A stretch of DNA of 54,828 nt. Source: a virus. Taxonomy: Duplodnaviria; Caudoviricetes. Positions 5,991 to 36,558 of the stretch are shown one piece after another. Position 1 is the stretch's first letter. Each line of letters starts with the position of its first letter. The notes under the pieces were generated by a model. The model did not search any database. It had not been told where the DNA came from and saw only the letters and a list, made by a program, of their open reading frames with translations. The stretch is from IMG/VR virus record IMGVR_UViG_3300030108_000328, positions 1 to 54,828 of that record, one strand, 5' to 3'. A program made the translations under genes and the position numbers.

Positions 5991-6010
5991 ATTTTTTCCT
6001 TAGATAAGCT

Positions 6011-6036
6011 AAAGGGGCCAACCTAAGTCAGCCCCT
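6011..6036 (-). terminator. Intrinsic terminator after capsid operon
   Basis: AGGGGCUGAC-UUAG-GUUGGCCCCU hairpin followed by short U run. Confidence 0.75.
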
Positions 6037-6598: not shown

Positions 6599-7672
6599 TT
6601 ACGCTGCGTTGTATTTAGCAGTTACGATTGCTTCTGGACGAAGAATCTTCCTACCATATAGATGCATACCACGAACAATGTCAGCAAAGCTGTCAGGGTC
6701 ACGATATGTTTCTGTCTTGTTGATCTGCTCTGCAGTTGCTACAGCAGAATCATGTCCAGCAACAATCACACCAAAGTTTGCATTTTGGTTTGCTGATCCT
6801 GTTGTACCTGGGCCTGTACCTACAGCAGGTAGGTTTGAGGACACGTACAAACGGAAGCCATGAAAGTTGTTGATTACAAGACCGTTACGAAGTCCACCAG
6901 ACTCACCGTAGTCTCCATTCATGAAGCGGCTGTCTTCGTCTGATAGGATTTCCATGAACACTGGGTCAATTACGAGCCAACGTCCTTGTGTATCAACTTG
7001 TTGTTGATCAAGCAATCTTTTCATTCTTGCAACAACCATTGCAGGTGAAGCTGTAGCTGTTGGCAAAGCAGTTGCACCTGGTAAACGTGCTACGACAGGA
7101 ATTGAGTGATCTCCTGCAGAGCTTGTTGTGATGTTACCGAATGAATCCTTACGGAGTTTCATGCTTGTAAGCAATTCGTCTGAACCTGCAGTAGTCACAG
7201 CTTTTGAACCGTTTACACTGTCATTAACTGTGTCTGCTTGTGCATGTAGAGAAGTTTGCTTATAACCTGACATATAGCCAAGAACTTCTTGGTCATACTG
7301 ATCAGCTAGTCTGTAAGCTGCACGATCTGTTGCAAGTTGCATGAAGTTCACATGTGAGTGAGCTTCTTCAATATCGTCCATCTTAAAAGCAAAGTAGTTG
7401 CTCTTGTCTACGACTAACTGAAAATCTTCATCGTCAAGGTCTTGTGCTGTGACTGTTGTGCCACGAGCATAAGATTGAACTGAGATTTCAGGCTCCTTGA
7501 TAATACGCACAGTATCACCTTGTGCGCTGATCTCTCCGAAATAATCGGAGTTAGTTATGTCTCCTACGGTAGCAGATTTGCGGAACGCAAGCTGTACCTT
7601 CTTGGAGTAGATTATAGGACTAAAATTACCGTTAGGTAGATTCCCATAACCCGATGCGGTTGTAAAAGCCAT
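6599..7672 (-). CDS. Major capsid protein (HK97 fold, P22 gp5-like)
   Basis: NFSPIIYSKKV...GDTVRI...DIVRGMHLYGRKILRPEA; GGAGG SD favours start at 7672 over 7687. Confidence 0.92.
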   Translation of the reverse strand: MAFTTASGYGNLPNGNFSPIIYSKKVQLAFRKSATVGDITNSDYFGEISAQGDTVRIIKEPEISVQSYARGTTVTAQDLDDEDFQLVVDKSNYFAFKMDDIEEAHSHVNFMQLATDRAAYRLADQYDQEVLGYMSGYKQTSLHAQADTVNDSVNGSKAVTTAGSDELLTSMKLRKDSFGNITTSSAGDHSIPVVARLPGATALPTATASPAMVVARMKRLLDQQQVDTQGRWLVIDPVFMEILSDEDSRFMNGDYGESGGLRNGLVINNFHGFRLYVSSNLPAVGTGPGTTGSANQNANFGVIVAGHDSAVATAEQINKTETYRDPDSFADIVRGMHLYGRKILRPEAIVTAKYNAA

Positions 7673-7723
7673 TGTTAAATCCTCCATGATATTTGGCTTT
7701 GGGAATAAAGCTTAAACACCTGA

Positions 7724-7878
7724 AAGAGGCTGTACGTTTTCTAGGGTGCAGAAAGTACTAGGTTGCGCTACCTAATACCACTGGGCCTATACTTGTCCAG
7801 GTAGTTCTTTGTAGTTTAGACTTTTGGGTTAAATGTATCTCTGAAGGTGGTCCTTTACGGAGGCTTCAAGTCAGATAC
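7724..7878 (-). promoter_or_regulatory. Structured 5' leader RNA of capsid gene
   Basis: Nested stems found by hand, three with C(Y)AC/CC internal loops. Confidence 0.65.
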
Positions 7879-7883
7879 GAGTA

Positions 7884-7911
7884 GTTATATAGATGACTTT
7901 AAATATGTCAA
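7884..7911 (-). promoter_or_regulatory. Sigma70-type promoter for capsid gene
   Basis: TTGACA-N16-TATAAC(TA). Confidence 0.7.
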
Positions 7912-7915
7912 CTAA

Positions 7916-8866
7916 TTATCTTGCAGAACCAGACATGTCATAAACAAATTTACCGTTACGGATAGCTTCGTTTATTTTGTCCTGCATTTCCTCAAACTCC
8001 TTGTTAGACATTTTGGCTACATCAGACTCTTTTATTTGTCCTTGTACACCCTCTGCGTCTACAGAAGTACGAGTTCCTTTAGCAACAGTAGATGCTGCAG
8101 CTTTCTTAGATTTCTTTTTAGCTGCTACGGTCATACCGTTGTCAATCTTGTATAGATCTATCACACGTACAACTGAGGCAGGATCATCCATGTTTTCATA
8201 GAGTGCATCCTTAACCCACTTGGGTTGTTCATCTGCCCAGTTATGAAACTTATCTGACTGTCTTAGTTCATCAAAGTCTTCGTGAGTCTTACGAATAACA
8301 TTCTCTGCTTTTACTCTTTGAGCTTCAGAATGTGCTTCATCTAATTCTTGTAGACGTGTCTCAGCTTTGTTAAACATCTCTTGAGCTTTCTTAGCTGCAA
8401 TTGTTTCAACAATACCTGCTACGTCTGGGTATTCTTGCGCCCACTTTTCTATGTCCTCATCAGACTTAGGAGGAACGATACCCTCGTGTTTACTCTTTTT
8501 CTCTAGAGCGTTAAACTTTTCTTGCCACTCTTTTTCTTTAGCAGCTAAGTGTTTGCGAATATCACCATAGCGTTTTTTAAAAGACTTCTCTTCAGCATCT
8601 AACTCGCTGTCATCGTCTTCCTGTGCTTTGGTTTCCTCTGGGGTTTCTTCTTGTTTGGAATCATCTGAGGCTTGAACTTCGGTGTTCTCAGTATCCTCGC
8701 TACTGGATTCCTCTTGTTCTTCGACTGTTTCACCACGAGCCTCTGCTTCTAGTCGGGCAATCTCTGCCTCTGCTTCTTCCATCTGTTTTTGTTTTTTAGC
8801 GTGGTTAAATCCACGATCTACAAAACCTGCTATTTTAGGTTTTTCCATTGCAGTTAGTTCAGGCAT
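7916..8866 (-). CDS. Capsid scaffolding protein
   Basis: Acidic coiled-coil, FKKRYGD motif, C-terminal helix (INEAIRNGKF); immediately upstream of MCP. Confidence 0.8.
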   Translation of the reverse strand: MPELTAMEKPKIAGFVDRGFNHAKKQKQMEEAEAEIARLEAEARGETVEEQEESSSEDTENTEVQASDDSKQEETPEETKAQEDDDSELDAEEKSFKKRYGDIRKHLAAKEKEWQEKFNALEKKSKHEGIVPPKSDEDIEKWAQEYPDVAGIVETIAAKKAQEMFNKAETRLQELDEAHSEAQRVKAENVIRKTHEDFDELRQSDKFHNWADEQPKWVKDALYENMDDPASVVRVIDLYKIDNGMTVAAKKKSKKAAASTVAKGTRTSVDAEGVQGQIKESDVAKMSNKEFEEMQDKINEAIRNGKFVYDMSGSAR

Positions 8867-8886
8867 TTAAAGTTCTCCTTTATGTT

Positions 8887-8913
8887 GGGGCCAGGAACCA
8901 TTCCTGGGTAGCC
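8887..8913 (-). promoter_or_regulatory. Hairpin in scaffold leader next to the SD
   Basis: GG-CUAC-CCAGGAA/UGG/UUCCUGG-CC-CC just upstream of AAGGAG. Confidence 0.6.
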
Positions 8914-8922
8914 TTATAGTTA

Positions 8923-11241
8923 TTATTTCTTTTTGCCCTTTTTATTCATTAGTCCACCTTCATTTATAGCTGCCATGTCTACCTTTGATGGATCTCTAGA
9001 TCTTGCTTCTAGATTTTTTGCTGCTGCTCTTGCACCAGGTTTTTCTACAGTACGACCACGACCTCCTGCCACACCTTTACCAGTTTTTACCCCAGACCTA
9101 GAAGAACGCACTGCCTTTGCTTTAGCTGCTGCTGCTCTTGCACCAGGTTTTTCTACAGTACGACCACGCCCACCACTTACAGGTTTAGCAGGTGCAGCAG
9201 GTAAACCACCAACTGGAACTGATTCTCTACCAGTTGAACTTGTAGATATAACAGAGGTAATAGGCTCTGATTTTGATTTATTTTGCTCCACTATGGTGTT
9301 CTTTACTTCTTGTTTGTCTTTACCAAATAGACCAGAAACAAAGTCTGTAATGTTGTCTAGAACAGTTCCTTCATTCTCTGGTGGTTTAATACCTTTAGCT
9401 TCCATTGCAGCTATTATATCTTTTTCTTGTGCTCTTGTTGCACCCTGACCAAATAGAGCAATCATAGGATTAACAGCACCCAAAGCTGTTAGTGCTATGC
9501 GTGTCTTTCTGTTTTGATCAAAAGCTTCTAGTAACTGCTCTGGACTGTACGTAGTGTAGTCTATCTTTTCAGGTGTTGGAGGTTTACTACCACCACCTCC
9601 TTTACGTCCACTTCCTGTAGTTACTGTGGCTCCTGTAAGATCTGTAGTTATTGGAGTGTCTGTAGTTGTTGGAGTAGTTTCTCCTTGTCCTGCAGGTCCA
9701 GTCATAGGCATCTGCTTGGTGTAACCCATACCAAGATATTTTTGATATATTTCATTATCTCTAGGAAGATAAAAAGTTTTACTTCTACCATTTGTAGCGT
9801 AGTCAGGATGGTAAAGAACTGTAAAGGTTTGTCCTGTAGGAGCTTGAGTGGTTGTTGTTCCTGCTTGCTGTGGCTGACCCATAAAACTGTAACCAAGACC
9901 AAACTGAGCAGGGTTAAATTCATTCTCAACAAAAGGAGGGATATCATCATCTGGTTGTGTAACATCACCACTGTCTTGATATCCTTGTACCTGACCACCA
10001 CTAGCCATGCTCTGCATAGGCATTTGGTTTTCAACAGGATTAACGTTGGTTATAGTTGTGTTTCTTTTCTCATCTATAGGTGCAGGTCTAGGTTGGCTGT
10101 ACAGTTGCTGTTGCTGTAAGTAAGGGTTTTGTACTTCACCACCTTCAGCCATACCCATCACTTCTCTGATAGCAGCCATCTCTTGCTCAGATAGTTCCTT
10201 GTCATTTACAGGACCACCATCAGGCACAGGCTCCCCACCTATACGTCCATTGGCTTCCATCTCAGCTAGACCCATCTTAGCTTGATCTCTTAGATCTTCA
10301 AAGAACTTGACACCGTAGTATCTGACAACATCAGCAGGAACGACATACTCACCCTCAGAGAGTTGTGCAGGAATATCATCTCGAACTTCTTCTGCGAGAG
10401 AACCAGGTGGTACTTCGTTTCCTGATACTGGATCTACGTCCAGATCATCATCTATTATTCCACCCTCTTGCATAAATGCCATTTCCATTTGATCATTCAT
10501 TACTGCACCGCCTTTAAACATTTTTTTTGGTATATTTATGTTTACTTCTCTACTAGGAGTATCTAAAAGATTAGCTAAGTATTCTCCTGCTAACTCAGGA
10601 GAGTACCTTATGTGTCTTAAAATACCTTTTAAATCTGTAGGTAAGTCTCTTTGTACTTTGTTAAAATCATACTCATCAGTTATTCGTAATCCACTGGGAT
10701 TCTTTTCTACATCAAATCTACCTAAACTAGTCGCAACTCTATACTGTGGATCAGTAAATGTTCTAATTAAAGAATCTTTGTATGACTCATCAACTCTTGT
10801 GGTAACTCCTTTAGCATCTGGATCACGAAAGTATGGACTAACAGTTGTTACGTTTTCTGGTTGATTTTTAAATTTTCTATTTCGTACATTTCTAAAATTT
10901 TCTTCTTGTTTTTCTGCTAGAAGAATCATTTCTATTAATTCATCATTAGTGAAATTTTTTTCAGTTATATCAGAATCTTTACCTAAAACATTTTCTATTA
11001 ACAGTCTCGCATTAGTAGGTATTTTATTGTACAAATTTTTAAAAGAAAAAGACTCATCGTTTAATTTGTATTCAGCCCTTACACGATCTCTTTCTTCTTC
11101 TTTTATGTCATCTAATGACACAGTTCTAAGACCTGTCTTAGGTTTTTTGTCTTCCCCTACAAACTTGTCAGCCTCCTGCTGTGCTCCTTCAGCAGTAAAA
11201 CCAAACATCTCCATTTGATCACTGGTCTGGTTTAGGTCCAT
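8923..11241 (-). CDS. Mosaic head-associated protein with multiple xxxGG motifs
   Basis: 772 aa between portal and scaffold; core DDIPAQLSEGEYVVPADVV; low-complexity C-terminus. Confidence 0.7.
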   Translation of the reverse strand: MDLNQTSDQMEMFGFTAEGAQQEADKFVGEDKKPKTGLRTVSLDDIKEEERDRVRAEYKLNDESFSFKNLYNKIPTNARLLIENVLGKDSDITEKNFTNDELIEMILLAEKQEENFRNVRNRKFKNQPENVTTVSPYFRDPDAKGVTTRVDESYKDSLIRTFTDPQYRVATSLGRFDVEKNPSGLRITDEYDFNKVQRDLPTDLKGILRHIRYSPELAGEYLANLLDTPSREVNINIPKKMFKGGAVMNDQMEMAFMQEGGIIDDDLDVDPVSGNEVPPGSLAEEVRDDIPAQLSEGEYVVPADVVRYYGVKFFEDLRDQAKMGLAEMEANGRIGGEPVPDGGPVNDKELSEQEMAAIREVMGMAEGGEVQNPYLQQQQLYSQPRPAPIDEKRNTTITNVNPVENQMPMQSMASGGQVQGYQDSGDVTQPDDDIPPFVENEFNPAQFGLGYSFMGQPQQAGTTTTQAPTGQTFTVLYHPDYATNGRSKTFYLPRDNEIYQKYLGMGYTKQMPMTGPAGQGETTPTTTDTPITTDLTGATVTTGSGRKGGGGSKPPTPEKIDYTTYSPEQLLEAFDQNRKTRIALTALGAVNPMIALFGQGATRAQEKDIIAAMEAKGIKPPENEGTVLDNITDFVSGLFGKDKQEVKNTIVEQNKSKSEPITSVISTSSTGRESVPVGGLPAAPAKPVSGGRGRTVEKPGARAAAAKAKAVRSSRSGVKTGKGVAGGRGRTVEKPGARAAAKNLEARSRDPSKVDMAAINEGGLMNKKGKKK
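9020..9168. repeat. 41-bp perfect direct repeat (9020-9060, 9128-9168) encoding RGRTVEKPGARAAA twice
   Basis: Direct sequence identity. Confidence 0.9.
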
Positions 11242-11431: not shown

Positions 11432-13567
11432 TTATCCTGTGTTACCAGTGAACCCTTGTTCTCCTGGTAGTGGTGCTGTGCCTGTACCGATTTGACCACC
11501 ACCTGATCCCTGAGTGTCTTGTACTTGAGCACCTGCAGGAGGTTGTTCTCCCTGTTGAGGAGCACCCTGTTGCTGCTGTGGAGCGTTAGGGTCTACCTGT
11601 GGTGGTGGATTATCTGCTTGGAATTTCTTGAGAATCTCAGCCTGTATAGCTGCGTCACCCATAGAGTTTGTAAGTTTGTCAGGATCAAGATCCATAGACT
11701 TAGCAATCTCTCTGATAATATAATCCATTTTTGCAAAAGGTGCAAGCACTGGATTCTGTACAACACCAAGAAACTGCATAAGTCTCTGACTACGAACCTC
11801 GTTAGCCATCAAGCTTTCTGTTCCTTCAGCCTTTACAGACAAATCACCTTTTACACCATCATCATAATCAAACTGCATGTTAAAGTGAAAGAAAGCTCTA
11901 CCTAGTGGTGCTAACAGATAATCATCTATGTTCTTTACAACGTTTCTTATGCTACCGTTGGCAGCAGACATGAGCATAGAAATACCAGAGGCAGTACGCC
12001 CTACACCCTGTATGCCTGTCTGACCATGAGCAAAGGATGGAAAGCCTGTTGACTCATCTGCTAACACTCTTGCTTTGTCGAACATCTGCATGTTCTCGTT
12101 AGATACATTCGGGAACTTGGTACCAAAGATAGCTTGACCAGGTGCCCCTCCTTGTCTCCTAAACACTTTGCCTGGATACACAGAGAGGTCTTGCCCTGGG
12201 ACGAGATTAGTCTCGTCTACCTCTATAAGTAGATTACCAGACAATGCTGCGTTATCTACTGACATTCTCATAAATCCGTTCATAAGATTTTGTGTATCAT
12301 CCATATTTTCTGCAATACCTACTCCAAAGAATGAGTAAGGGTTTACCTCAAAAGGCACTGCGTAATATGGTAAGATAGAAGGAGTAAATGGATTCATAAC
12401 AAGACGTAACACTTGTCCGTTACAAACCCAGATGTTTACGGAAACCTGATCTTGGTTTTCTAATTCTTTGGGGATCTCTATGTCGTATTCTTTTAAAAGC
12501 TCTGTGTCAACATATCCCCAAAACTCTAACACTGAGTATCTCTCAGCTTTTGTTTCTTGATCAGCCTCTTCCATGACTTGTTCCCACCACTCTTTAGAGT
12601 AGGACTCTCCCATGCTGATAGCTGTATCAATAGCGTTTGATCTGAAGAAAGGTCTTTTCTTTAACCCACGCATTTGAGATCTAGACATCTTGTGTCTCTC
12701 AACTACGTACTCTGCCTCATCCATGTTATTAGCGTCTGGGTCAGGATAAAAGTTCCAGATACTTACACTAGATGTTTGTGGTACAGTTTTAATTGTGGGT
12801 GTGTATTCACCATCTTCTGACCAAGAAGGGTATTCCTTATCGTAAGCAAATGGACCCTTCATAATACCTGTACCAAACAGAGCAGTTTCAAATGCTGCTA
12901 TACGTAACTGCTTTCTAGCATTTGACTCTTCTAGTTGGTCATGTATTTTCTTTTCCATCTTTTTAGCTGCAACCATGGCAGGATGGAAAGTAACTTTACT
13001 TGGAGTTACTCCTGGCCCATCTTCTATAAGATCTTGCACAGGCTCTAGTTTATTACGAAGTGCTCCAAGTCTTTCTCGTAAATCAATAATTGTCTCACCA
13101 GGCTGTAGTCTTGTTTCATCTTCTGGCAACGCACCGTCAGACTCTTGAGCTTTACGCATGTTGCTGTCAGTCTCAAAGTTTACAGACTCTGATATACCTT
13201 CTGGTAAAACAGTAGGGTTGATAGAGATAGGAAATTTGTTAGAACCAAAGAGCACATCTACAATCTGACCATAGGCTGCAAGAACCTTGGTCTTAGTTAC
13301 TTTTACAAATACTCTAGACTTTTCTGTAGATGTAAACTGCACGTCTGATCCGTACACACCACGATAGTTTTGATAGGCTCTGATCCATCGTAGTTCGTCA
13401 GTGTATCTAGCTTTCTCAGCCTTGTAGAATTTGCCCTCGACAAGACCTACTACTGTTCCTACCTTTTCATCTCTACTACTATCAGCATCTTCTTTATCTT
13501 CTACAAAAGAGGATTCCTCTTCATCCATGTAAAGTTCGTCTGATTCAAAGATATCATCTTCTTCCAT
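11432..13567 (-). CDS. Portal protein
   Basis: 711 aa after TerL; FGTGIMKG, NFYPDP, FFGVGIAE, RTASGISMLM motifs. Confidence 0.9.
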   Translation of the reverse strand: MEEDDIFESDELYMDEEESSFVEDKEDADSSRDEKVGTVVGLVEGKFYKAEKARYTDELRWIRAYQNYRGVYGSDVQFTSTEKSRVFVKVTKTKVLAAYGQIVDVLFGSNKFPISINPTVLPEGISESVNFETDSNMRKAQESDGALPEDETRLQPGETIIDLRERLGALRNKLEPVQDLIEDGPGVTPSKVTFHPAMVAAKKMEKKIHDQLEESNARKQLRIAAFETALFGTGIMKGPFAYDKEYPSWSEDGEYTPTIKTVPQTSSVSIWNFYPDPDANNMDEAEYVVERHKMSRSQMRGLKKRPFFRSNAIDTAISMGESYSKEWWEQVMEEADQETKAERYSVLEFWGYVDTELLKEYDIEIPKELENQDQVSVNIWVCNGQVLRLVMNPFTPSILPYYAVPFEVNPYSFFGVGIAENMDDTQNLMNGFMRMSVDNAALSGNLLIEVDETNLVPGQDLSVYPGKVFRRQGGAPGQAIFGTKFPNVSNENMQMFDKARVLADESTGFPSFAHGQTGIQGVGRTASGISMLMSAANGSIRNVVKNIDDYLLAPLGRAFFHFNMQFDYDDGVKGDLSVKAEGTESLMANEVRSQRLMQFLGVVQNPVLAPFAKMDYIIREIAKSMDLDPDKLTNSMGDAAIQAEILKKFQADNPPPQVDPNAPQQQQGAPQQGEQPPAGAQVQDTQGSGGGQIGTGTAPLPGEQGFTGNTG

Positions 13568-13577
13568 TAGTTAATCC

Positions 13578-15056
13578 TTAATATCCAAATGTGGGATCTG
13601 ATGCTTGAAACCCTGTTCGTTGAGAGTCTGGGTTGAAATCAAATAAGTTGCTTCTGGGTCTAGTCATCACACCGTATCGCAAAGCATCGTACAGGTGATC
13701 TTCTGAGTTGGTGTCCACGTCTTCAGGGTTCTTTTTATCTAAAGGTATGGACGGTAATTGAGAGACAAGATTTGTGCAGTTATTAAATATAACAAGCCTG
13801 GGTTCCTCTGTAAACTCATCTACTTGTAGTCTTCTGTGTAGTTCGTTTTTACCTGCTACTCGTGAGCCTCTTGATCTATCTGCAGGACGCCATCTACATC
13901 CTTTCATGATCATCTGCTCTGCTAGGCTAGGACCAGTGTCACCTCTTTTGTGCCAGAGTGAAGAGTCTAAGACACCGTACCTTATTTTTTCTCCTTCTTC
14001 CAATTCCAGGATCATGTCAGCCAAGTCAGTCGCTATGATCTTAGAAACATATAACTCCCTGTAGACAATTAGCTGTTCAGACCCTGGAACTATTGCTATC
14101 CATACAACGCCTGTGTGAGATCCGTATCCGTAGTCACAGGCTCTAAAACGAGTCCAGTTTGAAGGTATATCGTAGGGGTCAACTACGTGTATCTTTCTGT
14201 TGAACTCTGGAAATGCTGAACCCTCGTTTATATCCCAGTCACCTTCTAGTAGTTGTCTCCTCTGGTGTTCAGGAAGAGATAGAAGGTTTGCTTCGTACAT
14301 CCCATCCTCAGATAAGTAGGGATTGTCAAACAGGGTAGCAGGTATAAACTTTCTTTTGAATAGAGGTTCACCCTCTCTTGAGTGACCTTTAGGCCATTGA
14401 ATTATATCACCGTTTTCGTCAGTTGCCCAGAAAGCACTTCCTGGAGGACTGGGTTCTATAAAGTGTTTTCGTACCCACTGGTGTCCTGGCCCCCCAGGGT
14501 TGCTAGTAGCTCTCATATAGAGTGGTAATCCACTTGCTTTTGTAGCACGTAACCTTGATCTCATGTAGGACCAAGCGTAACTGGAGGGCCATTGCGTTAA
14601 CTCATCAAAGCCTATCCAGTTAAAGGCTTGACCTTGATACCTCATAACGTCATCGTCACGATCAAGATATGACATCCAGAGTGTTGCACCGTTAGGTGCC
14701 ACCCAAGTCTTATCTCTTTCCATGAACTTTATTCCTGGAACAGCCTTTGGGTAAAGCTGTTTACTTACAGATATAAGTTCTCGTAACTCTTCTGTACTCC
14801 TACGAACAAGTAACATTCGTGCATGTGGATTCGTAAAATATCTAACTGGATCAGCCACCATCGAATACGACTTGCCACCACCTGCTGCTCCTCCGTATAA
14901 CACCTCTTGTTCTGTTGAAGCTAGAAACTTAGTTTGTGGACCTGGATTAGGCTCAAATATTACCTCTTGTTTGTCCACAGAAAGGGCATCGTTCTCCAGG
15001 TTCGAGTGAGATGTAGTCTTCGTCTTCGCTAAGATCTCTGGTGTTTCTACCACCAA
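13578..15056 (-). CDS. terL: Terminase large subunit (start uncertain; frame open to 15164)
   Basis: Walker A GGAAGGGKS, Walker B IGFDE, ATSNPGG coupling motif, nuclease DYG and DHLYDALRY. Confidence 0.95.
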   Translation of the reverse strand: MVVETPEILAKTKTTSHSNLENDALSVDKQEVIFEPNPGPQTKFLASTEQEVLYGGAAGGGKSYSMVADPVRYFTNPHARMLLVRRSTEELRELISVSKQLYPKAVPGIKFMERDKTWVAPNGATLWMSYLDRDDDVMRYQGQAFNWIGFDELTQWPSSYAWSYMRSRLRATKASGLPLYMRATSNPGGPGHQWVRKHFIEPSPPGSAFWATDENGDIIQWPKGHSREGEPLFKRKFIPATLFDNPYLSEDGMYEANLLSLPEHQRRQLLEGDWDINEGSAFPEFNRKIHVVDPYDIPSNWTRFRACDYGYGSHTGVVWIAIVPGSEQLIVYRELYVSKIIATDLADMILELEEGEKIRYGVLDSSLWHKRGDTGPSLAEQMIMKGCRWRPADRSRGSRVAGKNELHRRLQVDEFTEEPRLVIFNNCTNLVSQLPSIPLDKKNPEDVDTNSEDHLYDALRYGVMTRPRSNLFDFNPDSQRTGFQASDPTFGY

Positions 15057-15450
15057 TTCTTTTCTCTTCGATTTTCTGGCTCTTCCTTGCCGCTTCTTTG
15101 TATTTTTTGGCATACTGCTTGTAGTTCGAGGAAGCTCTACGCCTTTTTTCTTCCATTCTGACACGTTTGTATAACCCTACATGTGATATTTCTCTACCAG
15201 ATTGTTTAGATAACCAGACTGCTACTTTCCTGGTACTGTATTCTTGAAGAAATAGTTTAGCTTTTTCTAGTAACTCTAACTCTTCAGGGATAGGTAGCAG
15301 TAAGTCTGGATCTGTTTCATCCTGTTTGTAACCAAAGGGTACGTGTCTTCCTACTCTTATAACAGGATACCACTCTCCTAGTTCCCCTTGTAGTGGTATC
15401 TGCCAGTCAACTTTGGTTGGGTGGTCTGCTGTTGTAGCTCTTTTACTCAT
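14953..15450 (-). CDS. HTH/recombinase-domain-like DNA-binding protein overlapping terL
   Basis: VPFGY...YSTRKVAVWLS...ISHVGLYKR resembles a serine-recombinase DNA-binding domain. Confidence 0.65.
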   Translation of the reverse strand: MSKRATTADHPTKVDWQIPLQGELGEWYPVIRVGRHVPFGYKQDETDPDLLLPIPEELELLEKAKLFLQEYSTRKVAVWLSKQSGREISHVGLYKRVRMEEKRRRASSNYKQYAKKYKEAARKSQKIEEKRIGGRNTRDLSEDEDYISLEPGERCPFCGQTRGNI

Positions 15451-16311: not shown

Positions 16312-16476
16312 TCAAAGGGCTTTACCTTTTAGTAGAACCCTTTCTATATCATGCCTACCAATACCTAAGTCTCGTAGTTCCCTGTCGGTCATTTGGTAAA
16401 GTTGCATACGTGCAATCTTACGTCTAGCTGACTCTGTTCTTGCTTCTATTATTTTGTTGAGTAATCTTTTAAACAT
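16312..16476 (-). CDS. DUF1127 (YjiS/CcaF1-like) small Arg-rich protein, not in ORF track
   Basis: 54 aa MFKRLL...QLYQMTDRELRDLGIGRHDI matches the LxxLxDxxLxDIGxxRxDI signature; GAGGA SD. Confidence 0.85.
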   Translation of the reverse strand: MFKRLLNKIIEARTESARRKIARMQLYQMTDRELRDLGIGRHDIERVLLKGKAL

Positions 16477-22929: not shown

Positions 22930-23118
22930 TATACTAATAGTTATACACGCTTCAAGTATAAAACAACAGGATAATACACGCCATGACACTATGTCACACC
23001 CATAAGACGTAAGCATATACTTTTATATCTAGTTATAATTAGAACAAACCCCTTGTCATCCAGGACTATATACTTGTTCTTTACCTTATATAGTTTCATA
23101 TCGTTAGTTATATCCAAA

Positions 23119-36530: not shown

Positions 36531-36558
36531 TTGACGGAATGAATTTAATTCTTATAAC
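36531..36558 (+). promoter_or_regulatory. Sigma70-type promoter for nucleotide-metabolism genes
   Basis: TTGACG-N16-TATAAC(T). Confidence 0.65.

Follow-up and report, generated by a model that had tools for sequence, protein, structure and literature searches.

The virus record IMGVR_UViG_3300030108_000328, whose whole length of 54,828 bases (completeness estimate 99%) is referred to here as the window, belongs to an HMO-2011-type podophage, and its nearest named relatives are the Roseobacter phages CRP-9 (74.6% DNA identity with the window across the head region) and CRP-13 and the Puniceispirillum phage HMO-2011. The subject of this analysis is a small internal-loop RNA module that recurs in the leaders of two head-region genes on the minus strand. 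The major capsid protein gene (6599-7672) matches phrog_267 (major head protein, E 5.9e-63) and Pfam Phage_capsid_4 (E 5.9e-8), and the start codon conserved in an alignment of relatives is the second in-frame ATG, at 7672, placing the AUG at 7672-7670 behind the Shine-Dalgarno (SD) sequence GGAGGA at 7685-7680. Upstream of it, in the position of a scaffold gene, lies an open reading frame (ORF) of 316 amino acids (aa; 7916-8866; phrog_13678, function unknown), with the SD sequence AAGGAG at 8880-8875 and its AUG at 8866-8864. The original prediction, made from this DNA, was that four copies of an asymmetric loop pairing CC with C(Y)AC lie in these two leaders and that one phage protein binds them to balance scaffold and capsid output.

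When the letters were read directly, all four loops were located on the minus strand, at the positions first given. Three belong to a structured 5′ leader RNA of ~205 nucleotides (nt; 7673-7878) with four helices, P1 to P4, for which the covariance model R1 was built. P1 (7835-7878), the 5′-terminal hairpin, contains copy 1 (7868-7842; UGAAG-CC-UCC / GGA-CCAC-CUUCA) and an outer extension, GUAUCU/AGAUAC. P2 joins a 5′ strand at 7798-7809 (AAGA-ACUAC-CUG, the long strand of copy 2) to a 3′ strand at 7724-7732 (CAG-CC-UCUU, its short strand), the latter being part of the pyrimidine tract CCUCUUUCA (7729-7721). Within P2 sits the P3 hairpin (7742-7789), where UAGG-CC-CAG (7789-7781) pairs with CUG-CAC-CCUA (7751-7742) to form copy 3 around a variable distal stem-loop (7752-7780), so that P2 and P3 are nested modules in opposite orientation. 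P4 (7691-7717; GUUU-AA-GCUUU ... AAAGC-C-AAAU) stands directly upstream of the SD. The stem said to cap copy 3 is present, with a length of 10 bp in the minimum free energy (MFE) fold in place of the 9 bp first given; this fold of the intergenic region (z-score -2.43) forms copies 1 and 3 and not P2. Copy 4 (8913-8887; GG-CUAC-CCAGGAA-UGG-UUCCUGG-CC-CC) makes up a hairpin in the scaffold leader and does lie beside the SD, ending 7 nt before the AAGGAG of the 316-aa ORF.

The capsid leader sits behind the strongest promoter-like site of the window. This sigma-70-type promoter (7884-7911, minus strand) consists of TTGACA at 7911-7906, a 16-nt spacer and TATAAC at 7889-7884, and TTGACA-16-TATAACT is the sole perfect site of its kind in the window. 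Among relatives, TTGACA-N16/17-TA(T/A/C)AAC occurs in 75 of 77 distinct upstream regions, and TATAACT is invariant in all 63 aligned leaders. Further promoter-like sites at 36531 (plus strand) and at 23059 and 22772 (minus strand) share with the capsid promoter an unusual -10 element, TATAACT or TACAACT.

In a single sequence the module shows no excess over chance, and its support is the comparison with relatives. A strict scan (GCC / CYACC with at least 3 bp on each side) returned one match on the minus strand of the window and four on the plus strand, while a relaxed scan of the minus strand returned 41 matches versus 62.9 +/- 7.2 in 20 dinucleotide shuffles. The capsid leaders of related phages give a different result, with 2.87 relaxed matches per 231-nt leader (75 distinct leaders) versus 0.26 in 1500 shuffles, an 11-fold enrichment, and only 0.7% of the shuffled leaders reach three matches. 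When 3 bp or more were required on both sides, P1, P2 and P3 were scored in 45, 66 and 67 of these 75 leaders, and the P1 misses mostly reflect an inner stem of 2 bp. Within the 100 nt upstream of 73 window ORFs, the only convincing copy of the module precedes the scaffold-like gene, and no further copies were found beside other gene starts in the window. These counts support the view that the modules occur in no leaders but those of the capsid and scaffold-position genes.

A search of IMG/VR with the capsid protein gave at least 599 matches, and 80 loci were returned at 83-99% protein identity. In 72 of 81 loci the capsid start is preceded by a long ORF that stops 212-335 nt short of it (the other nine loci are truncated too early), and alignment of the leaders revealed invariant sequence blocks between variable stems. 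RNAalifold applied to the raw MAFFT alignment recovered only P1 and an invariant GGC/GCC pairing and was replaced by a hand-set structure and a covariance model. With the hand-set structure, 82.3% of cells in the MAFFT alignment of 63 leaders can pair, compared with 74.2% in shuffles, and the covariation score is 0.287 versus 0.148 (reached by 0 of 500 shuffles; slid controls ≤0.092). R1, built from this alignment, has one match in the window (7670-7889, 195.8 bits) and one match in 88 of 99 sources. In the alignment of 78 distinct leaders fitted to R1, 88.4% of cells pair (70.2% in shuffles), compensatory changes occur in 32 of 37 pairs and covariation rises to 0.439 versus 0.151 (0 of 500; slid controls ≤0.09); the fitted alignment leans towards its own model, and the MAFFT result serves as the independent check.

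The covariation is spread over all four helices. In P1, helices 2 and 3 of the model are 95.5% and 91.1% paired, with compensatory changes in all eight pairs, and P4 (helices 8 and 9) has them in nine of nine. In P3, P3b is 97.9% paired and has compensatory changes in three of three pairs, and P3a has them in three of four, two of its pairs hardly varying. One pair of P2b changes between GC (45), AU (16) and CG (13), while P2a (AAGA/UCUU) shows almost only one-sided changes. Covariation, which had been proposed as a check on the homologous leaders, was thus found for the helices flanking the loops in the capsid leader and, as described below, in the scaffold hairpin.

The loops themselves behave in the opposite way. 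The short strand is CC in 78 of 78 leaders for P2, in 78 of 78 for P3 and in 57 of the 58 rows that have P1, a helix absent from 20 divergent rows. The long strand is CUAC (47) or CCAC (6) in the 58 rows with P1; ACUAC (40), CUUAC (12), CCUAC (9), AUUAC (5) or ACCAC (4) among 78 for P2; and CAC (54), ACUAC (11) or ACCAC (5) among 78 for P3, the long strands of the P1 to P3 modules ending in AC. As predicted, the stems differ while the asymmetric loop recurs: the helices covary and the loop letters are fixed across relatives. Judged from these alignments, the module is an asymmetric internal loop, CC opposite (N)C(Y)AC, usually closed by G-C, between freely changing helices.

The scaffold-leader hairpin is kept in relatives as AAGG-CUAC-YCRG...CYGR-CC-CC followed by AACAUAAGGAG, and its covariance model, R2, has the hairpin at 8887-8913 as its sole match in the window (38 bits). 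The pair adjoining the loops is C-G in 32 and U-A in 13 of 46 sequences; when divergent phages are included, the outer stem changes from GG/CC to CUAG/CUAG, CUGG/CCAG or UUGG/CCAA, and covariation reaches 0.268 versus 0.122 in shuffles (0 of 500). At least 120 stretches of IMG/VR contain the exact pattern. Every one of 78 newly fetched loci has the hairpin 12-21 nt (mode 17) ahead of an ORF that is 260-320 aa long (71 complete, seven cut by the contig end), and the 38 distinct hairpin sequences among them include many with UACG or UUCG loops. Four IMG/VR loci (L056, L063, L073 and L075) have a different hairpin at this site, with no match to R2. In six divergent scaffold hairpins (those of L015, L054, L070, HMO-2011, CRP-1 and a freshwater-spring phage) the arrangement stem-CUAC-(5 bp)-CC-stem appears on both strands, and these dyad hairpins amount to two modules around one short helix, an arrangement that suggests a two-fold symmetric binder.

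P2/P3 and the scaffold module are kept in HMO-2011, CRP-1, CRP-2, CRP-13, CRP-345 and the freshwater-spring phage, and also in the soil rhizobiophages phiM6 and RHph_N3_19, so that the module-bearing phages include those of SAR116, Roseobacter and rhizobia. R2 matches phiM6 (E 4e-5) and RHph_N3_19 (E 3e-5); R1 reaches RHph_N3_19 with only E 0.02 and has no match in phiM6. Over the range from HMO-2011 to the rhizobiophages, identity drops to 45% (across 72% of the length) for the scaffold-position protein and to 59-80% for the capsid protein, while the loop letters stay invariant. In the freshwater-spring phage (L087) a gene for an HNH/PacI-like endonuclease (1342-1911 of that locus) lies between the scaffold-position and capsid genes, with P2/P3 kept downstream. 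Beyond these phages, actinomycete prophages with distant capsid homologues gave no R1 match in 10 loci and no R2 match in four, and the rate of relaxed matches there (0.72 per 350 nt in 68 GC-rich upstream regions) is uninformative. With a first-look filter that scored few candidates, R2 found no credible match in 151 Rhodobacteraceae genomes (two weak ones, E 0.10 and 0.14) and only matches of E >3 in three metagenome-assembled genomes (MAGs).

Several features indicate that the element acts as sense-strand RNA and not as DNA, because G-U pairs exceed A-C pairs in the leaders (170 versus 88), UACG or UUCG apical loops occur in many scaffold hairpins, and the leader is present in metatranscriptome contigs. 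These runs consist of contigs only, the ends of which cannot show RNA ends, starts or levels. One 205-nt contig (run X1, record 7) covers exactly 7674-7878, next to where transcription is predicted to start (near 7877), and hints weakly at a primary transcript; other metatranscriptome contigs cover the scaffold leader, and stretches lacking coverage carry no weight as evidence. Taken together, the comparative data indicate that the capsid and scaffold leaders are real conserved RNA structures with a real repeated module.

The relatives also display variation within the capsid leader. The P3 apical loop, AGCGCA in the window, carries the self-complementary GCGC, and relatives have GCGC, GGCC or UGAUCA flanked by A/U; GGCC or GCGC is present in 49 of 73 distinct P3 distal inserts. 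Such a palindromic loop may allow loop-loop kissing between two leader RNAs, and the words GGCC and GCGC are also common restriction or methylation sites. In one subclade with a weak inner P1 stem of 2 bp (L024, L027, L028, L046, L010 and L020), the loop and 3′ strand of P1 are able to pair with the 5′ strand of P3 (UAUAUG/CGUAUA in L024, UGUAUG/CGUACA in L028, CUUUUG/CAGAAG in L046, with L027 as a mismatch intermediate), which may be an alternative or long-range pairing. Six loci (L040, L061, L108, L129, L082 and L160) contain insertions of 50-100 nt within P4 or behind it, in the stretch from the module domain to the SD, and R1 still matches them end to end.

The remaining head region, all on the minus strand, begins with the large terminase gene (13578-15164), followed by an SU10-type portal gene (11432-13567) and an ORF of 772 aa, without a match in a Pfam search, between the portal gene and the 316-aa ORF; a ~45-nt stretch (ggtcgtggtcgtactgtagaaaaacctggtgcaagagcagcagca) is repeated in the C-terminal part of the 772-aa ORF (9020-9200). 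Downstream of the capsid gene is an ORF of 178 aa, after which comes a terminator-like, GC-rich hairpin (6010-6036; AGGGGC ... GCCCCU, then UUAGCUUAU) that is likely to be the end of the capsid transcription unit. A scan match to the module at 6038-6009 is better read as this hairpin, which would close a short promoter-to-terminator unit (the capsid and 178-aa genes) within the late region. Among the fetched loci, L209-L216 are phage-sized contigs (54-68 kb) that have the capsid gene and lie inside MAGs labelled Neomarinimicrobiota, Methanobacteriota, Bacteroidetes, Blastopirellula and Rhodospirillales; these labels are probably binning artefacts and not hosts.

Folding ensembles were calculated for 79 distinct leaders that each extended 30 nt into the coding sequence. 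The mean unpaired probability of the capsid SD is 0.24, and 87% of its pairing probability goes to the region of the P2 3′ strand, CAGCCUCUU. Mean predicted probabilities are 0.71 for P1, 0.68 for P3 and 0.24 for P2; when P2 and P3 are enforced, at a mean cost of 4.4 kcal/mol (median 4.0), the fraction of unpaired SD climbs from 0.21 to 0.56. The prediction contains both an anti-SD tract and a mutually exclusive helix, the two elements of an SD-sequestering switch, and P2a shares UCUU with the tract. A three-way constraint among AAGA, UCUU and GGAGG would explain the missing covariation of P2a, and the gap of ~4 kcal/mol could be bridged by a bound factor or by loop structure that the energy model leaves out. 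On these predictions the capsid leader probably acts through an SD-sequestration switch, and therefore binding there would more likely activate than repress capsid synthesis.

The 316-aa protein is acidic and predicted to be all-helical (AF2 model, mean pLDDT 74), with a conserved N-terminus, MPELxxxExPKxAGFV and a basic patch, followed by an acidic, disordered stretch. It has at least 8000 database relatives, with no Pfam match, no match to a PDB fold and no named homologue among the 120 matches listed. Elsewhere in the window, a 54-aa ORF (16315-16476, minus strand; Pfam E 1.2e-7) belongs to DUF1127, a small arginine-rich family, of which one member, CcaF1, binds RNA in Rhodobacter; the paper on CcaF1 gives no defined binding site. 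By tblastn the gene was found in CRP-9, CRP-345, CRP-2, CRP-603, CRP-1 and CRP-738, and not in HMO-2011 or CRP-13. Both of these phages bear the module, and the DUF1127 protein is no more than a lead for a module binder.

Among known systems, Rfam 15 at gathering thresholds has no match in the whole window; at E up to 10, the region 7600-9000 has four weak matches, each of which falls within the scaffold-position ORF (8182-8820), and both leaders are without one. The Rfam search that had been suggested as a check accordingly assigned neither leader to a family, and the literature searches, which did not extend to supplements with possible transcript or proteome data on CRP phages, returned no description of the element. 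The closest motif is the C-loop, to which the original prediction had likened the module. In its descriptions (RNA 3D Motif Atlas IL_73276.5; rRNA 16S h15 and 23S H38/H50/H96; viroid loop 26), the C-loop figures as an internal loop of asymmetric type whose long strand has three core unpaired nucleotides, two cytosines around an often-A base with the first base usually C, and whose short strand has 0-2 extra nucleotides; one rRNA example is reported with a nucleotide inserted between the cytosines, and C-loops are described as protein-binding or architectural. The phage loops resemble it in being 2 x 3-5 nt inside hairpin stems, flanked by covarying helices, in their letters (CAC in 54 of 78 P3 modules, CUAC or CCAC in 53 of 58 P1 modules, C-Y-A-C with one extra 5′ base in P2) and in having one flanking pair that is constrained in sequence (G-C, or A-U in 13 of 46 scaffold hairpins). 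The letters and, broadly, the size class fit: copy 3 (CAC/CC) obeys the size rule, whereas copies 1, 2 and 4, like most copies, have long strands of 4-5 nt, the short strand is always CC, and the defining crossing non-Watson-Crick pairs, which make two base triples with the flanking pairs, are not readable from sequence.

The parallel drawn with P22, whose scaffolding protein represses its own synthesis post-transcriptionally, is functional: any likeness lies in the logic and not in a homologous cis-element. P22 lacks such leaders as well as the motif; its gene 8 begins 13 nt downstream of the portal gene and has its stop overlapped by gene 5, and in the relaxed scan gene 8 is preceded by no motif and gene 5 by a single minimal match of 2+3 bp. 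As in P22, the portal and coat genes enclose one for a helical scaffold-position protein, whose conserved basic end is the N-terminus in the window phage, and the annotation of the HMO-2011 coat gene names the P22 coat family, which the window capsid matches weakly, below the Pfam cut-off. Ribosomal-protein leaders, the MS2 coat operator and T4 RegA exemplify SD-sequestering switches or protein operators. The window shares with them an SD-complementary pyrimidine tract that competes with an upstream partner strand and a hairpin that edges the ribosome-binding region of the scaffold gene, and differs in having its module four times across two genes, partly in dyad pairs, and in belonging to no Rfam family. 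T7 gene 10 encodes the capsid of a podovirus and has a promoter of its own and a special high-expression leader, and the window phage likewise has both and, as among T7 late genes, hairpins with internal loops between genes; unlike in T7, the promoter is of host type and not one for a phage polymerase, the leader is ~205 nt long with four covarying helices, and the helices fall short of the length that RNase III needs. Neither P1 nor the scaffold hairpin is followed by the U-run of an intrinsic terminator, and a terminator scan gave no minus-strand site at the modules and one nearby match (7781-7800) on the plus strand.

The repeated module of the leaders is probably a shared control element for head-protein synthesis. 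We tentatively favor a model in which all modules are recognized by one trans-acting factor, with the capsid leader as an SD switch and the scaffold hairpin at the ribosome site. The factor would most likely be a dimeric protein, because the modules often occur in dyad pairs. On the capsid side, CAG-CC-UCUU, which is the short strand of module 2, would pair with either its P2 partner or the SD; occupied modules would stabilize P2/P3, leaving the SD accessible and switching on capsid translation. On the scaffold side, where the module ends 21 nt before the AUG, the bound factor would hinder the ribosome. If the factor were unassembled scaffold protein, scaffold synthesis would go down and capsid synthesis up, setting the ratio of the two. 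Scaffold autoregulation through the modules is a plausible candidate mechanism, and the full version, in which an unassembled scaffold dimer binds the modules via its basic N-terminus, blocks its own initiation, locks P2/P3 and frees the capsid SD, is rather unlikely.

Several observations weigh against recognition by a factor and the SD switch. With P2/P3 enforced, the SD is mostly free in only 18 of 79 leaders. The SD:anti-SD helix is predicted from nearest-neighbor energies, which leave structured internal loops unscored; it is 79% paired with both sides conserved and shows essentially no covariation (one of six pairs, a single compensatory case), and the scaffold leader has no conserved anti-SD element. 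A 419-nt contig (run X6, record 31) spans the promoter (7703-8116), so that read-through transcripts or DNA carry-over exist. The scaffold label of the 316-aa protein comes from its position and its predicted all-helical fold, the partner search yielded no factor binding the loops, and loop letters that stay invariant while the scaffold protein diverges to 45% identity would suit that protein no better than they suit a very conserved factor or a fold inherent in the RNA. The main rival is a leader that works without any factor, its modules being architectural and building a compact, nuclease-resistant 5′ domain that keeps the SD available and gives the mRNA a long life and high translation of the head proteins needed most, with no sensing of assembly. 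C-loops are described as architectural, P1 begins at the predicted 5′ end, the leader follows the strongest promoter-like site, the loops hold while the phage proteins diverge, no RNA-binding protein emerged from the partner search, and the predicted instability of P2 is possibly an artefact of energy rules that ignore structured loops. Such a leader would leave unexplained why a second gene has the same loop letters beside its SD, in a minimal hairpin of 9 bp, why modules form dyad pairs and why a P2 strand is complementary to the SD in nearly all leaders, and we consider it a serious contender that is nonetheless on the unlikely side.

Other explanations fare less well than either the single-factor model or the architectural leader. 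The modules could mark cuts made by a host or phage endoribonuclease in the late polycistronic RNA around the scaffold-position gene, as the RNase III sites of T7, which are intergenic hairpins with internal loops, do; the elements occupy both intergenic gaps flanking that gene, the hairpins resemble those sites, and one metatranscriptome contig ends at 7878 and 7674. RNase III needs roughly two helical turns, though, and the scaffold hairpin has 9 bp in all with flanking helices of 3-7 bp, while the conserved promoter of the capsid leader supplies a 5′ end without processing and contig ends cannot show RNA ends, which makes processing improbable. A different riboregulator, either a small-molecule riboswitch or a put-like RNA for polymerase read-through of the hairpin at 6036-6010, would account for a long, conserved, covarying leader directly behind a promoter, for the predicted alternative SD pairing and for the terminator-like hairpin downstream. 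To our knowledge, aptamers and put RNAs are not built as a simple fourfold module with a bare, promoterless hairpin copy before a second gene, no Rfam match appeared even at E up to 10, and a link between a metabolite and head proteins is not obvious; such a regulator is, if anything, slightly less probable still than processing. That the likeness arose by chance, or that the signal acts at the DNA level, for instance as an inverted repeat bound by a protein, could be argued from the single window, where the motif is no commoner than in shuffles, and is already contradicted by the comparative data, namely the compensatory changes in most leader pairs, the excess of G-U over A-C of about 2:1, the UNCG-type loops of the scaffold hairpins, the 11-fold motif density and the invariant position before the scaffold-like ORF in all 78 loci, so that this explanation is barely credible.

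The leader family is well supported by comparative sequence as a new structured RNA, present neither in Rfam 15 nor in the literature searched. HMO-2011-type phages are very common in marine data, as reflected in the capsid matches (at least 599) and scaffold-hairpin stretches (at least 120) of IMG/VR, and their leaders offer a natural test bed for the recognition of a small internal-loop module. The old question of how tailed phages balance scaffold against coat synthesis is thereby made testable, with culturable phage-host pairs at hand in the CRP phages on Roseobacter RCA strains and phiM6 on Sinorhizobium meliloti. We know of no C-loop described as a repeated mRNA operator. If feedback by the scaffold protein were true, the module would be the first defined cis-element for scaffold-mediated translational control and would show the C-loop in a new natural role, repeated as an operator on mRNA, in a marine phage group that ranks among the most widespread.

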